A stretch of 64,000 nucleotides of DNA from an uncultured Nocardioidaceae bacterium (GTDB lineage: Bacteria; Actinomycetota; Actinomycetes; Propionibacteriales; Nocardioidaceae). The position numbers were made by a program, and so were the translations under genes. A model generated the notes under the pieces. The model did no database searches. It worked only from the letters and a program-made list of their open reading frames with translations, and had not been told where the DNA came from. The stretch lies in assembly GCA_964237315.1 (NCBI GenBank), contig CAXSHL010000010.1, positions 10,556 through 74,555 of the forward strand. Reading direction: 5' to 3'. Positions 17,455-23,817 of this stretch are shown in pieces. Position 1 is the first letter of the stretch. Each line of letters begins with the position of its first letter.

Positions 17455-18893
17455 GTGGACAGGTTCTTCGAGATCACCGACCGCGGCTCGACCATCGGGC
17501 GTGAGGTCCGGGGAGGCGTGGTCACCTTCTTCACGATGGCCTACATCATCGTGCTCAACCCCTGATCCTCGGCTTCGCCAAGGACGCCGACGGGAAGTAC
17601 CTCGGGGGAGGGTCCGGCCCCGACCTGCCGCTGATCGCCGCCGCCACCGCGCTGGTGGCCGGGGTGATGACGATCCTGATGGGGGTGGTCGCGAACTACC
17701 CGCTCGCACTGGCCACCGGTCTCGGGCTGAATGCCTTCGTGGCCTTCTCGATCGCCTCCGGGATGTCCTGGCAGGACGCCATGGGCCTGGTGGTCCTCGA
17801 GGGCCTCGTGATCCTGGTGCTGGTGCTCACCGGCTTCCGCAGCGCCGTGTTCCACGCCGTGCCGGCCCAGCTGAAGACTGCCATCAGCGTGGGCATCGGC
17901 CTGTTCATCGCCCTCATCGGCCTGGTGGACGCCGGGTTCGTGCGGCGGATCCCGGACGCCTCGAACACCACCGTGCCCGTGCAGCTCGGCGCGACCGGGT
18001 CGCTGGACGGCTGGCCGGTGCTGGTCTTCGCTCTCGGGCTGCTGCTGATGATCACCCTGTTCGTGCTGCGCGTGCGGGGCGCGATCCTGATCTCGATCGT
18101 CGCGGCCACCGTGCTCGCCATCGTGATCGAGGCGGTCGCGAACGTGGGCCCCTCGGTGTCGGGCGACAAGACCAATCCGAACGGGTGGAGCCTCAACGTG
18201 CCGTCCCTGCCGGACAAGGTGGTCGACGTCCCGGACTTCGGCCTGCTGGGGCACGTGTCGCTGTTCGGCGCGTTCGAGCGGGTCGGGCTGGTCACCGCGG
18301 TGCTGTTCGTGTTCACGCTGATGCTGGCTGACTTCTTCGACACGATGGGCACGATGACCGCCATCGGCGCAGAGGCCGGCCTCCTCGACGAGGACGGCGT
18401 CCCCCCGAACAGCCGGCGGATCCTGGTCGTGGACTCGGTGGCGGCCGCGGCCGGCGGTTTCGCGTCGGTGTCCAGCAACACGTCCTACGTCGAGTCCGCC
18501 TCCGGTGTCGGCGAGGGGGCCCGCACCGGACTGGCCAGCGTGGTCACCGGGGTGCTGTTCCTGCTCGCCACCGTCCTCTCGCCGCTGGTGGCGGTCATCC
18601 CGAACGAGGCGGCCACCCCGGCGCTGGTGCTGGTCGGCTTCTTGATGATGCAGCAGGTCAAGGACATCGAGTGGGACGACGTGGAGATCGCCCTGCCGGC
18701 ATTCCTGACGATCGTGCTGATGCCGTTCACCTACTCGATCTCGGTCGGGATCGGCGCCGGGTTCATCGCCTACGTCCTGATCAAGGTCGTCCGCGGCAAG
18801 GCGGGTGTGCTGCACCCGCTGCTGTGGCTGGTCTCCGCGCTGTTCGTCCTCTACTTCTTCATCTCGCCGGTCAGGCAGCTGCTGGGCGCCTGA
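17455..18893 (+). CDS. NCS2 (AzgA/PbuG-like) purine permease, frameshifted at about 17562
   Basis: VDRFFEITDRGSTIGREVRGGVVTFFTMAYIIVLNP then TGA at 17563; one extra C restores NPLILG; downstream DFFDTMGT and TSYVESASG. Confidence 0.88.
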
Positions 18894-18918
18894 GAATGCC
18901 GGGTGCCGCTAGGGGTAC
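18894..18918 (+). promoter_or_regulatory. Putative SigF/SigB-type stress promoter
   Basis: GAAT-N15-GGGTAC upstream of the acidic peptide ORF. Confidence 0.4.
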
Positions 18919-18964
18919 GTTCACGGCGGCGGCACCTTCGCCGCCCCACGAAGGGAGCAACCCC

Positions 18965-19189
18965 ATGACGACCACGCCAGGCGAGCCGGTCAGCGACGAG
19001 GACATCACCACGGGCATCACCGACAGCAGCACCGGTGGCGACGCGGACGGGACCGACGGGGGCGCGGACGCCGACGGCACCGACGGCGACGCCACGGACA
19101 CCACTGACGGGGACGCCACCGACGGCACCGGGACCGGCGGGGACGCTGACGGGACCGACGGCGGGGACGCCGACGGCACCGACGGCTGA
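18965..19189 (+). CDS. 74-aa acidic Asp/Gly/Thr repeat peptide (putative precursor or substrate peptide)
   Basis: RBS AAGGGAG at 18951-18957; MTTTPGEPVSDEDITTGITDSSTGG followed by 4 exact DADGTDG repeats; 20 Asp; GC-rich third codon positions. Confidence 0.8.
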   Translation: MTTTPGEPVSDEDITTGITDSSTGGDADGTDGGADADGTDGDATDTTDGDATDGTGTGGDADGTDGGDADGTDG

Positions 19190-19193
19190 GCTG

Positions 19194-20343
19194 TTGCCCG
19201 ACCTGCCGTCCGACCCGGTCGCGGCGCTCGAGCTGCTCAGCGGGGACGCCCAGAGCTTCGTGTCGAAGGTCTGGGCGTCCCGCGCGCACATCCACCACGC
19301 GGACCCCGACTCCACGCGTCAGCTGGTCGCCCTGCTCACCTTCGACGACGTCGACCACCTGCTGACGGGTACGGCGATCCGCACCCCCGCCGTACGCATC
19401 GCCCAGGACGGGACCGTCCTGCCCGCCTCCGCCTACACGCGTCAGGCGAGCCTGGCCGGCCAGGCGCTGACCGGCCTGCTCGACCCGCGCAAGGTGTTCG
19501 GGCTCTTCGACGGCGGCTCGACCGTGGTGCTCCAGGGCCTGCACCGCTACTGGGAGCCGCTCGGTGCCCTGGTCGCCGACCTCGAGCTGGCGCTGGGGCA
19601 CCCCTGTCAGGCGAACGCCTACCTCACCCCGCCCGGGGCGCAGGGGTTCGCGGTGCACTCCGACAGCCACGACGTCTTCGTGTTCCAGACCCACGGCAGC
19701 AAGGTCTGGGAGGTCCATGCCAGCGAGGGCGAGGTGCAGACCGTGGTGCTCGAGCCGGGGGTGAGCATGTACCTCCCGACCGGCACCCCGCACGCCGCCC
19801 GGGCCCAGGAGACCGTGTCGCTGCACGTCACGATCGGCATCAACCAGGTCACCTGGCGCCACCTCCTCGAGCGGGTGCTGGCGGACGCGCTCGAGGAGTC
19901 CGGTGCACAGCACCTGCCGGCGGGCTACCTCGACGACCCGGCCCTGCTCGCGGACGGCCTGACCGAGCGGGTGGACGCACTGTCGAGCGCCCTGCGCGGG
20001 CTGGACCCCGCGGCGGTCGCGAACGCCGAGGTCCGACGGTTCCTGACCAGCAGGACCCTGTGGCAGCGAGGCGGTCTGCGCGACCGGGTCGCGGCCGGCG
20101 GGCTCAGCGACACCAGCGAGCTTCGGCGCCGGCCGGGGCACCCGTGCGTGCTCGTCCCGGAGGGCGACCGGCTCAGCGTGCGACCGGGAGCTGGTGATGC
20201 CGGCCCGGCTCGCGGCACCCCTGCAGGTGGTGCGGGCCGCCTCGACCTTCCGGCCCGCCGATCTCGCCGAGCACCTCGACGAGCAGAGCCGGCTGGTGGT
20301 GTGCCGACGGCTGGTGCGCGAAGGCCTCCTCGAAGTCGTCTAG
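19194..20343 (+). CDS. JmjC/cupin 2OG-Fe(II) oxygenase (ROXA/NO66-like), frameshifted at about 20181
   Basis: GSTVVLQGLHRYW, ANAYLTPPGAQGFAVHSDSHDVFVFQTHGSKVW, LEPGVSMYLPTGTPH (HxD...H); C-terminus DRELVMP...RRLVREGLLEVV in another frame; start (TTG 19194) uncertain. Confidence 0.88.
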
Positions 20344-21234
20344 ATGACCTACAGCTGCTCCGCCGCCAGCCTCGAGCGCGACGAGCCCGTGGCCGGCTCC
20401 GCGTCGACGGTCCGCGCCTTCCTGCTGGTCGAGAACGCCGGGCCCTGGGGCGTCGCGGCGCTCCGGGACGCCCGGCTGCCCGAGCAGGTCAAGACGGGGC
20501 TGCGGGCGCGCGCAGCGGCCGACGGGGTCCGCGTGCTGCTGGTCCGCCGGCACCGAGGTGCGGAGTCCGGCCCCGGCCTGCGGGTGTTCGCCGCCTGGGC
20601 AGACGCCGCCTCGCCATGGCTGGAGACCGCGTCGCTGGACTCGCCCGAGGCACTGCTCGACATGGACCTCGACTCCCTGGGCCGGGGCAGGTCGCCCGGC
20701 CTGACCCGCTCCGAGCGGCCGGTGTTCTGCGTGTGCACCCACGGCCGGCACGACAGCTGCTGCGCGACGCTGGGCCGCCCCACCGCCACGGCACTCACCC
20801 GCTCGCACCCGGAGGAGACCTGGGACGTCTCCCACATCGGCGGGGACCGGTTCGCCGCCAACGTGCTTGTGCTCCCGGAGGGCCTGTACTACGGCCGGGT
20901 CTCCGCCGCCGCTGCGCCGGCTCTGGCCGATCGGCACCTGGCCGGGCACCTCGACCTCGACCTGCTGCGTGGGAGGTCCGGCTTCGCGTTCCCCGTGCAG
21001 GTCGCCGAGGTCGCAGCGCGCCGGGAGGCGGGGGAGACCCGCACGGGCGCCGTACGACTGGTCTCGACGGCTCGTGCCGACGACGACCTCACCGTCCGGC
21101 TCGACGTCGCCGGGACGCCGTACGACGTGGTGGTGCGCCGCTCCCACACCGACCAGCAGCACCGGCTCACCTGCCGCGCGCACCGGGCGGAGGCGGCGCC
21201 GACGTACGACGTCCTGTCGGTGACCCAGGTGTGA
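20344..21234 (+). CDS. Sucrase/ferredoxin-like (thioredoxin-like [2Fe-2S]) protein
   Basis: N-terminal CS...GSA...LLVENAGPWG; VCTHGRHDSCCA; SHIGGDRFAANV..LPEGLYYGRV; starts immediately after the JmjC stop. Confidence 0.88.
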   Translation: MTYSCSAASLERDEPVAGSASTVRAFLLVENAGPWGVAALRDARLPEQVKTGLRARAAADGVRVLLVRRHRGAESGPGLRVFAAWADAASPWLETASLDSPEALLDMDLDSLGRGRSPGLTRSERPVFCVCTHGRHDSCCATLGRPTATALTRSHPEETWDVSHIGGDRFAANVLVLPEGLYYGRVSAAAAPALADRHLAGHLDLDLLRGRSGFAFPVQVAEVAARREAGETRTGAVRLVSTARADDDLTVRLDVAGTPYDVVVRRSHTDQQHRLTCRAHRAEAAPTYDVLSVTQV

Positions 21235-21279
21235 CGAATCCCCCGTGACGGCGGGTCGCAGCGGGTGCACGATGGGAGC

Positions 21280-22185
21280 ATGACCTCAGCGATCAGCGCA
21301 CGAGGACTGCGCAAGACGTTCGGCAGGACGGTGGCCCTGGACGGGCTCGACCTCGAGGTGGCCACCGGCGAGGTGCACGGCTTCCTCGGCCCCAATGGTG
21401 CCGGCAAGTCCACCACGATCCGCGTGCTGCTGGGTCTGCTGCGGCTGGACGGGGGAGAGGCGCGGCTGCTCGGTGGCGACCCGTGGCACGACGCGGCGAC
21501 CCTGCACCGCAGGCTCGCCTACGTGCCCGGTGACGTGAGCCTGTGGCCGAACCTGACCGGAGGCGAGGTCATCGACCTGCTCGGGCGCCTGCGCGGCAGC
21601 CACGACCCCCGCCGGCGCGCGGAGCTGCTCGAGCGGTTCGACCTGGACCCGACGAAGAAGGCGCGCAGCTACAGCAAGGGCAACCGGCAGAAGGTCGCGC
21701 TGGTGGCGGCGCTCGCCTCCGACGTGGAGCTGCTGCTGCTCGACGAGCCGACCTCGGGCCTCGACCCGCTGATGGAGGCGGTCTTCCAGGACTGCATCCA
21801 CGAGGAGGCGGCCCGCGGACGCACGGTGCTGCTGTCCAGCCACATCCTGGCCGAGGCCGAGGCGCTGTGCGACCGGGTGAGCATCATCCGCGCGGGACGC
21901 ACGGTGCAGAGCGGCACCCTCGACGACCTGCGCCACCTGACCCGCACCACCGTGGTCGCCGAGACCCTGCGGCACCCGGACGGGCTCACCGCGGTGCCCG
22001 GGGTGGCGCACGTCGAGCGGGTGGACGGACGCGTCAGCTTCGACGTGGACACCGACCACCTCGACGAGGCGATGAGCTATCTGGCCGCCCTGAGCATCCG
22101 GTCCCTGGTCAGCCACCCGCCGACGCTCGAGGAGCTCTTCCTCAGGCAGTACGGCGAGCAGGTGCCGGCCGAGCCGGCCCGATGA
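21280..22185 (+). CDS. ABC transporter ATP-binding protein
   Basis: [32 protein letters not shown]. Confidence 0.95.
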
Positions 22186-23817
22186 GCACCCTTCCGCGGC
22201 TGCACCGCACCGTCCCGCAGGACACCACGCCGGCGGGTCCCGCGTCGGGGGGCACCGGCCTCGAAGGCACCGGCGGCCTGCTGGCACTCGCCGCGCGGCG
22301 CGACCGGCTGCGGCTGACCGTGTGGGTGGTCGCCCTCACGGCGGTCACCTACCTGTCCGGGAGCGCGATGGCGACCACCTTCCCGACGCCGGCCTCCATC
22401 GCGGCCTACGCACAGTCCGCTGCCTCGCCCGCCGTCGTCGCGCTGGCCGGCCCGCCGATCGCCCTGGACACGCTGCCCGGCATCGTGATCAGCAAGGTGG
22501 CGATCACCTGCATCGTCGCCACGGCGCTGCTGGCGGTCCTCACCGTGGTCCGGCACACCCGCAGCGAGGAGGAGGAGGGTCGCAGCGAGATGCTGCGGGC
22601 CACCGTCGTCGGCCGGCACGCCGGGACCGCCGCGGCCCTGCTGCTCGCCTGGGGCGTCTCGGTGCTGCTCGGGGCAGGCTCGGCGGTCGCGCTGGCCGGG
22701 GCCTCGGTGCCCGGGTCCGCGGCGTGGCTCTTCGGCGCCGGGATCGCCGCCCTGGGGATGGTCTTCGCGGCGCTGACGGCGGTGCTGGCCCAGGTCTTCA
22801 CGCACGCCCGGACCGCGCTCGGCGCGGCACTCGCGCTGCTCGGGGTGGCCTACGTCGTGCGCGCGGCCGGTGACGTCCAGGACAGCTGGCTGGTCTGGCT
22901 CTCTCCGATCGGCTGGTCCCAGGCCACCCACCCGCTCGGCGACGAGCGATGGTGGCCGCTGCTGGTCAGCGTCGTCGTCGCGGGGCTGCTGGTCGGGGTC
23001 GCGGTGGCCTTGGCGAACCGCCGCGACGTCGGCGCAGGCCTGGTGTCCCCGCGCCCACATCGAGGACGAGCTCGGGCCGGTCGGGCTGGCGCTGCGCCTC
23101 CAGAGGGGAATGCTGGCCGGCTGGGCGGCGGGGCTCCTCGTGCTCGGGGTGGCCCTCGGGTCGCTGTCCAACGCGGTCCAGGACATGACCCGGGACAACC
23201 CGACCCTGGAGAAGTACCTCGCCGGCACCGGTCAGGGGTCGCTGACAGACACCTACCTCTCCTCGATGCTGCTCATCATGGCGCTGCTCTCCGCCGGCTT
23301 CTCGGTGTCCTCGGCGATGCGGCTGCGGCCCGACGAGACGTCCGGCCGGCTCGAGCTGCTGCTGTCCACCGGCGCGTCCCGGACCCGCTGCCTGCTCGGC
23401 AGCCTGCTGGTCACCGCCCTCGGCACGGTCGTGGTGCTGGCCGCCGGCGGCCTCGGGCTCGGCCTGTCCTACGGGCTCGTCGTCTCCGACGCCACCCAGC
23501 CGCTGAGGTTCGCGGGACTGCTTCTCCTCTACGCCCCGGCGGTGCTGGCCACGGCCGCCCTCGCGGTCCTGCTCCTGGGCTGGCGACCGGCCTGGGCGGC
23601 GGTCGCCTGGGCCGCCCTCGGCGTGTGCTTCGTGCTCGGCTGGCTCGGGGGCCTGGTGCACCCGCCACAGTGGCTGCAGGAGCTGTCCCCGTTCTGGCAC
23701 ACGCCGGCGGTGCCGGTGGACCCGGTCAGCCTCGCCGCTCCGTCGGTGATCGCCCTGGCCGTCGTGCTCCTGGTGGCGGGAGGCGTGCTGGGCCTGCGGC
23801 GCCGGGACGTCGGGTGA
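22182..23817 (+). CDS. ABC exporter permease (duplicated 6-TM type), frameshifted at about 23055
   Basis: RRDRLR...[17 protein letters not shown]...WLSPIGW...RRDVGAG; second half [14 protein letters not shown]...LSPFWH...RRRDVG in another frame. Confidence 0.8.

Follow-up and report, generated by a model that had tools for sequence, protein, structure and literature searches.

Oxygenases that join an iron(II)/2-oxoglutarate (Fe/2OG) site to a leader-binding domain have been described among the tailoring enzymes of RiPPs (peptides that are ribosomally synthesized and then post-translationally modified). The available part of the preprint on MppG from Moorena producens presents a tested RiPP Fe/2OG hydroxylase that combines a His/Asp/His triad with a RiPP recognition element (RRE) at its C-terminus; the RRE takes up the L(X)4L leader in the form of a strand, in a system that performs processive C-beta hydroxylation (bioRxiv 10.64898/2026.10.04.756588). 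CzlI, BpmG/PbsQ, CinX, CanE and ThoJ/TsaJ figure as further JmjC and other Fe/2OG RiPP tailoring enzymes in the accessible sections of two articles, according to which CinX and CanE hydroxylate the C-beta of Asp (PMC11575548, PMC12257519), and partial accounts of FIH state that it accepts Asp. Ribosomal oxygenases (ROX) end in a winged helix whose function is called unclear in the accessible portion of one review (PMC6182338). Here we describe a locus in a 64,000-nucleotide stretch of DNA from an uncultured Nocardioidaceae bacterium (contig CAXSHL010000010.1, positions 10,556 to 74,555; hereafter the window), in which the gene of an Asp-rich repeat peptide is followed by those of a JmjC oxygenase and a sucrase/ferredoxin-like protein. 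This trio is a real, widespread and undescribed RiPP-like unit, for which we infer the chemistry, the metal binding and the task of the ferredoxin. Our preferred reading, with a probability of roughly 0.6, is leader-directed, repeated beta-hydroxylation of Asp residues in an intracellular, possibly metal-binding peptide, the ferredoxin-like protein likely being an accessory reductant.

The locus comprises the following features, all on the forward strand:

18892..18918, forward: candidate SigB/SigF-type promoter, GAGAAT-N15-GGGTAC, with an imperfect match at the -35 element
18951..18957, forward: ribosome-binding site AAGGGAG of the peptide gene, read from the sequence
18965-19189, forward: precursor-like peptide gene, 74 aa, recognised by homology to peptides beside JmjC genes in other genomes and by AAGGGAG 7 nt before its ATG
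19194..20179, forward: 5' part of the JmjC Fe(II)/2OG oxygenase gene (PF08007), with a NO66/ROX fold predicted on the relative L001
20182..20343, forward: 3' part of the JmjC gene past an 8-bp gap, encoding the remainder of the winged-helix/RRE-like domain, as aligned to relatives
20344-21234, forward: sucrase/ferredoxin-like gene (PF06999)

Peptide, JmjC and ferredoxin-like genes are contiguous, and their joint expression is proposed from this contiguity. As the initial annotation had it, the JmjC gene begins 4 nt past the peptide stop, with a TTG at 19194, and the ferredoxin-like ATG (20344) directly abuts the JmjC stop TAG (20341-20343). The oxygenase scored 67.2 bits against PF08007 (cut-off 22) and the ferredoxin-like protein 65.5 bits against PF06999 (cut-off 34.9). 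While the 5' part of the JmjC gene covers the catalytic barrel, the dimerisation helices and the start of the winged-helix domain, its 3' part includes the strand and helices that are predicted to bind the leader. The records looked up label the three genes as 'hypothetical protein', 'cupin domain-containing protein' and 'sucrase ferredoxin', and in the open-access literature we found no description of the stand-alone unit, of the repeat core or of an HxGGD partner.

The 74-residue repeat peptide with its own ribosome-binding site, pointed out by the initial annotation, is plainly present in the sequence. From residue 25 onward it consists of Asp (17), Gly (16), Thr (10) and Ala (7) and nothing else, with four exact DADGTDG units starting at residues 26, 35, 60 and 68, whose codons vary at synonymous positions only, which suggests selection on the protein. 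Ahead of a linker and this core lies the leader V9-S-D-E-D-I14-T-T, an L(X)4[I/M] motif. Such peptides are rare in the source genome (G000, 81% complete): of its 23,489 ATG-started frames of 40-140 aa, only four combine an Asp content of 20% or more with two or more DxDG, and these represent two loci, each counted from two starts. The other locus (G000:C24 near 40382, forward strand) encodes GPDHD/GQD repeats, a different repeat, and has no leader motif. Pfam and NCBIfam gave no match for the peptide, and those of its 78 homologues that carry names are all called 'hypothetical'.

A strict leader pattern retrieved 127 peptides from 147 loci, on which all leader and core tallies rest and which understates the true number, because it missed real peptides (L086, L112 and several of the type ii and type iii loci described below). 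The leader consensus was L/V-x-D-[DE]-[DE]-[IML]-x-T, with Leu in 116 and Val in 10 of the 127, Asp in 126, Ile, Met or Leu in 60, 56 and 10, and Thr in 118. DxDG occurs in 118 cores, DADGTD in 104 and Cys in none. The 2596 Asp contexts of the cores include TDG (480), ADG (363) and SDG (176), and Ala and Ser swap freely in DADG/DSDG units. With a length of about 17 residues, the leader belongs to peptides showing no Nif11-leader or lanthipeptide core features (no Cys in any of the 127 cores, no Pfam match). The likeness to double-glycine leaders that had been suggested held for the L(X)4L part and failed for the glycines: GG stands at +10/+11 behind L(X)4L in only 24 of the 127 peptides, and the leader is therefore of L(X)4L type, a double-glycine leader being rejected. 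The first GG or GA behind the leader lies anywhere from +8 to +81, and 17 peptides have neither. No C39 peptidase (PF03412) was found in the 81%-complete source genome, and no signal peptide in the peptide sequence.

The linkage of peptide and oxygenase extends well beyond the window. In a close set, the 80 best of 451 related GTDB stretches (Nocardioidaceae where named), a ferredoxin gene lies downstream in all 80 and an Asp-rich upstream frame in 78; the other two are L009, without upstream DNA, and L016, frameshifted. For a distant set, an even draw of 401 Actinomycetota genomes was used, with the source genome and two unpublished genomes in the tally; 70 of the 401, and 66 of the 396 good genomes (about one in six), held a JmjC match. 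From 66 of the 69 other genomes we took 67 loci, 65 of them with upstream DNA, and grouped them by inspection. An acidic peptide precedes the JmjC gene in 61 of these 65. Type i (51 loci) has DADGTD/DGDATD cores and the peptide in 49/49 loci with upstream DNA (L099 being partial and L118 cut off); type ii (8 loci) has EGPADGG..HDGGADG repeats and the peptide in 8/8; type iii (3 loci) has PTEDDENLDAPGEHSQDTGDE twice and the peptide in 3/3. L134 has a different acidic frame ahead of its JmjC gene, and the four most distant enzymes, with core scores of 107-144 versus at least 216 for the rest, have no upstream peptide. The conserved leader, the variable repeat number and the tight linkage to JmjC across the phylum agree with the proposal of the initial annotation that the peptide is a precursor, and the conserved upstream peptide that it led one to look for is present in both sets. 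A ferredoxin gene adjoins the JmjC gene in 54 of the 67 distant loci; the exceptions are L085, L086, L099, L133 and L134, all type iii loci and the four most distant enzymes, L149 being unscorable. Of the 58 type i/ii enzymes that could be scored, 4 have no such neighbour. No other neighbour family was common to more than four distant loci, as judged from crude open reading frame (ORF) calls and flanks of 2.4-4 kb. Peptide type clusters on a quick version of the enzyme tree, a pattern that kinship alone would also give.

Several loci depart from this layout. The type iii loci (L127, L128 and L129, family f41) combine the leader ISNDD[IV]S with two ENLDAPGEHSQDTGDE units and have no adjacent ferredoxin; the target residue may differ there, since these peptides contain His and Asn. 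In L130 (G399), the ferredoxin gene lies on the opposite strand, convergent with the JmjC gene. On Streptomyces clavuligerus plasmid NZ_CP065235.1 (L191:3769-5164), a 33%-identical JmjC, with pocket changes R65K, Q111K and R115E, stands behind a 48-aa peptide whose leader reads LEPDEIEV and whose repeats are IADxDP; the locus adjoins genes for an S9 peptidase and an ABC transporter, and this is possibly an exported branch of the family. A more distant JmjC that retains the winged helix occurs on a plasmid of Streptomyces sp. WAC00288 (L192:524-7964), in a thioamitide-like RiPP cluster with YcaO, TfuA, a methyltransferase and a carbamoyltransferase. In viral contigs, the search turned up a single match, weak and partial (26% identity).

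The window oxygenase carries the metal triad H155-S-D157...H200 and the 2OG-binding K170, all invariant or nearly so in the alignments. Its gene being frameshifted, structure work was done on the intact relative L001, whose JmjC is 85% identical to that of the window over residues 9-329. The L001 model, with a predicted local distance difference test (pLDDT) score of 95.9, matched NO66 over its full length (Z 27.9, root-mean-square deviation (rmsd) 5.8, 366 residues aligned), then MINA53 (Z 23.3) and YcfD (Z 18.8-19.1), and in this model the ROX architecture of JmjC barrel, dimerisation helices and C-terminal winged helix is complete. Profile comparison gave E values of about 1e-38 for NO66 and about 1e-15 for YcfD. 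In the available parts of two reports, R297, N326, Y328, S421 and the N376 loop are among the NO66 residues contacting its substrate Rpl8 (PMC4556315, PMC9994133). According to a hidden Markov model (HMM) alignment, our family keeps N326, Y328 and K355 of NO66; R297 is replaced by V109, L299 by Q111, the His-binding S421 by an invariant G212 and I344 by an invariant H156, and the loop at N376 is short in many type i enzymes. The substrate contacts of a NO66-type histidyl hydroxylase (R297, S421 and the N376 loop) are thus not conserved. Six pocket residues (R60, R65, Q111, R115, Q136 and H156) are shared by types i and ii alike and nearly so by type iii, and the wider set including N138, Y140 and G212 hardly differs between enzymes with DADGTD cores and those with DGGADG cores. 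The active-site loop measures 40-41 residues in 8/8 type ii enzymes and 16-42 in type i.

The C-terminal domain of the L001 model has three strands followed by three helices. A fold search with the whole JmjC protein was filled by barrel matches, and an Atlas search with the domain returned WHD_ROXA clusters, not PqqD. We co-folded the L001 oxygenase with Fe and peptide residues 1-46, obtaining a score of 0.65 (runs of 0.65, 0.65 and 0.71) against 0.08 for the best control; the corresponding mark was reached by 116 of 157 solved pairs and 2 of 215 mismatched pairs, a calibration only roughly valid for a run with its own alignments and a ligand. The runs had at least 30% of contacts in common, with partner pLDDT of 48-51. 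The confident interface is predicted to lie between leader residues 6-19 and the C-terminal domain, where residues 13-17 would pair with strand 331-336 as an added strand and V9 would sit between helices, touching 336, 339, 361, 365, 368 and 369. Co-folding, suggested earlier for peptide and oxygenase, placed the leader but no core residue with confidence, and it is predicted that the JmjC enzyme binds the leader through an RRE-like C-terminal domain.

An independent hint for leader binding comes from L134, L136, L138 and L141, which form one clade (Shimodaira-Hasegawa-like approximate likelihood-ratio test (SH-aLRT) 100) and whose peptides have no leader or an altered one. Their C-terminal domains scored only -1 to 11 bits against the domain profile, whereas the other five type ii enzymes reached 41-61 and type iii enzymes 32-49, the core scores of this clade and of those five being equal (229-239); leader loss and winged-helix decay seem to have gone together. 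This clade is also a natural control for leader-independent activity.

In the window itself, the JmjC frame breaks after about codon 329, where an 8-base gap near 20180, relative to three relatives, shifts the last 53 codons to another frame; the rest of the C-terminal domain is encoded by 20182-20343. Four same-genus loci are intact at this site, a 98%-alike record from another study has eight extra letters there, and the best-matching sequencing run (depth 4-7), which may be the source, gave no contig across 20172-20208. The gap is most likely an assembly error or a strain-private lesion. Frame breaks occur elsewhere in other assemblies, in the JmjC genes of L025, L031, L200 and L204 and in the peptide genes of L016, L055 and L068.

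As for the third gene, the cluster ligands of Apd1 and Aim32 are C-X8-C...H-X-G-G-H, as given in the accessible sections of PMC11138216 and PMC8482512. The window protein has C131-X8-C140...H164-IGG-D168, together with H136 and the extra conserved C5, C139 and C277. Its model (pLDDT 96.5) shows a thioredoxin-like [2Fe-2S] core (1f37, Z 13.0, rmsd 2.5, 94 residues aligned) followed by a domain of cystatin-like fold at the C-terminus (Z about 9; this arrangement is common); a sequence search of the PDB gave a best E value of 0.13, all others being weaker. Among 134 copies linked to JmjC, C131/C140 are kept in 133, D168 (HxGGD) in 132, the other two being one truncated copy and one with Cys, and H136 in 123. 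Forty unlinked PF06999 matches, picked among the stronger matches of the same genome draw, have H168 (HxGGH) in 38 and R136 in 37; the two unlinked Asp copies both occur in JmjC-carrying genomes (G162 and G282), and in G282 a type iii locus lies 22 kb away. Linked and unlinked proteins alike conserve C5, C139 and C277, which may form a second metal site. Judged by these residues, the JmjC partner is a specialised PF06999 subfamily altered at the fourth ligand position, not always present, and the pattern suggests that a Cys2/His/Asp version of the Apd1/Aim32 cluster site occurs naturally.

The candidate promoter of the window has counterparts elsewhere. GGGTA occurs within 200 nt upstream of 58 of the 127 peptides (47/76 close, 11/51 distant), with 22.6 expected from mononucleotide shuffles (maximum 34) and with 4/126 and 1/127 in control stretches further upstream and inside the JmjC gene. 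Most of the sites are 40-80 nt away from the ATG, and a GTT-like element precedes GGGTA by about 16 nt. SigB/SigF consensus promoters are given in the available parts of PMC7693655, PMC4694148 and PMC8346170, whose main texts, so far as accessible, contain neither 'cupin' nor 'sucrase'. A general-stress, SigB/SigF-like promoter may drive the unit in many Actinomycetia. Neither a sigma-70 promoter nor an intrinsic terminator was found in 18700-21500. A GC-rich inverted repeat, GGCGGCG...CGCCGCC, lies at 18926-18946, between the candidate promoter and the ribosome-binding site. As to the fate of the product, no conserved protease or exporter was found beside the trio in the 2.4-4 kb flanks of the distant loci, though host enzymes encoded elsewhere may take part; given also the absence of a signal peptide, the product more probably stays inside the cell than leaves it.

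Upstream of the locus, 17500-18893 encodes an NCS2 (xanthine/uracil) permease (PF00860), whose start seems to precede the listed 412-aa ORF and whose frame changes near 17560, possibly through a second assembly indel. Downstream, 21265-23817 encodes an ABC-2-type exporter, an ATPase (PF00005, with a DrrA-like C-terminus) followed by a permease seemingly split over two frames, which is not kept beside the trio in distant loci. One PqqD/RRE-family match lies elsewhere in the source genome (G000:C8:22866-23024, L190).

According to our preferred reading, the three contiguous genes would be co-expressed, possibly from the general-stress promoter. The leader is predicted to add a strand to the three-stranded C-terminal sheet, with L/V9 and I14 in the inter-helix pocket, as the co-loss in one clade would also suggest. 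The flexible core would then thread through the Fe/2OG site, where the Asp residues of x-A-D-G words could be beta-hydroxylated in turn. The resulting cytoplasmic poly-alpha-hydroxy-carboxylate could hold Fe or another cation under stress, which is the weakest step. The HxGGD ferredoxin, apparently dispensable in a few loci, would most simply re-reduce oxidised oxygenase iron or free iron from the product. Such a reductant role seems plausible, since a 2OG oxygenase consumes no external electrons in each turnover and yet comes to a halt once its iron is oxidised. That the JmjC enzyme modifies the peptide appears very likely, and that it does so by beta-hydroxylation of Asp appears probable. 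The Asp C-beta is the most likely target because A-D-G is the word common to DADGTD and DGGADG cores and the pocket is nearly unchanged between them. In addition, Asp is the only functionalised residue shared by all core types and the pocket has gained Arg and His, and the ROX enzymes and RiPP precedents (CinX, CanE, MppG, CzlI, BpmG/PbsQ) hydroxylate side chains. A metal-binding product is suggested by the role of beta-hydroxy-Asp in siderophores, where it is a common ligand according to the available part of PMC12628792, and metal storage as the purpose can be put forward only tentatively. More doubtful still is a fuller version in which the unit would represent a new RiPP class, with a NO66-like winged helix reading the leader, a poly-beta-hydroxyaspartate acting as metal sink and a His/Asp-rewired [2Fe-2S] protein loading or unloading its iron or performing a second reaction.

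Several observations weigh against leader-directed hydroxylation of a metal-binding peptide. Besides its rough calibration, the co-fold placed no core residue confidently, so that it does not indicate the target residue, and its pass may partly reflect likeness, because RRE-leader complexes are among solved structures. The joint loss of leader and winged helix is a single evolutionary event, leaderless enzymes exist (L136, L138), and two distant enzymes without a peptide (L139, L142) keep the winged helix; since this domain also occurs in ribosomal oxygenases, it is by itself no mark of a RiPP enzyme. Should the frameshift be genuine, the window enzyme would lose its leader-binding part. Type iii peptides have no A-D-G although their pocket is nearly the same, which weakens the argument from this word. 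As for metal binding of the product, suggested by analogy, canonical DxDxDG occurs in only 13 of the 127 cores. Finally, the candidate stress promoter is common mainly in the close loci, GGGTA being found in only 11 of the 51 distant ones.

Among the alternatives, a leader-directed reaction of another kind is unlikely, though it is the one with most in its favour: C-alpha hydroxylation of Gly, leading to cleavage into short amidated units, attack on Thr or Ala, desaturation of Asp, or an HxGGD protein acting as second catalyst, which would dehydrate or oxidise beta-hydroxy-Asp at a labile Asp-ligated iron. Gly follows Asp at most core sites, cleavage would need another route in loci with no conserved protease, FIH can desaturate according to partial accounts, and the coupled change from R136/H168 to H136/D168 is seen only in linked ferredoxins. 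ROX/JmjC protein hydroxylases and the RiPP precedents, as far as the available descriptions go, act nevertheless at C-beta/C-3, Ala and Ser interchange freely in DADG/DSDG, and the ferredoxin cannot be essential to the core reaction because L085, L086, L099, L133 and all three type iii enzymes have none next to them. It is less likely again that the peptide stays unmodified, as a bound regulator, inhibitor or cation carrier of an oxygenase whose true substrate is another protein or a metabolite. The prediction covers leader binding only, no export or cleavage genes are conserved, and non-oxidised peptides can inhibit NO66/MINA53, as stated in the accessible part of PMC9994133; yet a leader followed by a conserved word in variable copy number is the arrangement of a multi-site substrate, core type tracks the enzyme tree, including active-site loop length, and conserved Arg and His line the pocket.

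The two remaining explanations are both very improbable. A housekeeping ribosomal oxygenase like YcfD or NO66 with incidental neighbours would account for the full ROX architecture and its fold matches (NO66 Z 27.9, MINA53 23.3, YcfD 18.8-19.1), and the window JmjC is the only PF08007 gene found in the source genome. Against it stand the patchy distribution (66/396 good genomes), the almost strict association with peptide and ferredoxin, which persists from family to family as the remaining neighbours vary, the altered NO66 substrate contacts, and a profile far nearer NO66 than YcfD, the latter being mostly proteobacterial in the available part of PMC5862935. Cleavage at a double-glycine site and export as a siderophore-like metallophore would fit the L(X)4L spacing, the use of beta-hydroxy-Asp in siderophores (PMC12628792, in its available part) and the S9 peptidase and ABC transporter beside the distant S. 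clavuligerus relative (L191); the scarcity of GG at +10/+11 (24/127, with 17 peptides lacking GG and GA altogether) and the lack of a neighbour family common to more than four distant loci argue against it.

If leader-directed Asp hydroxylation holds, a bacterial NO66-like enzyme gains a candidate substrate, and leader docking is proposed as a function for the ROX winged-helix domain; were the unit a new RiPP class of the kind sketched above, this would also suggest that the unexplained winged helix of human NO66/MINA53 descends from a peptide-docking module. The unit may also supply an enzyme that installs many beta-hydroxy-Asp residues and can be programmed through the leader. The logic of such an enzyme is already known, because MppG is a tested precedent. 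As in MppG/MppE, to judge from the available description, an Fe/2OG hydroxylase with a His/Asp/His triad has a leader predicted as an added strand on its C-terminal domain. MppG differs in that its target is Trp, in a lanthipeptide that has a folded Nif11 leader and belongs to a larger cluster; the trio combines a short leader with an Asp/Gly/Thr/Ala repeat core, shows no clear modifying enzyme besides the oxygenase and includes an Fe-S protein. CzlI, BpmG/PbsQ, CinX, CanE and ThoJ/TsaJ are, in the accessible accounts, single-site enzymes in clusters defined by other enzymes, and none is described there with a repeat core or a sucrase/ferredoxin partner. With NO66/RIOX1, MINA53/RIOX2 and YcfD/RoxA (PF08007, winged helix PF20514), our family shares the full-length fold, the triad, the 2OG lysine and the equivalents of N326/Y328, whereas its substrate contacts are changed, a dedicated peptide gene is present and the winged helix is predicted to bind a leader. 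The partner, in turn, resembles Apd1/Aim32 (PF06999) in its C-X8-C and H-x-G-G motifs and thioredoxin-like ferredoxin fold, and differs from them in that the linked copies carry Asp at the fourth ligand position and His at 136.

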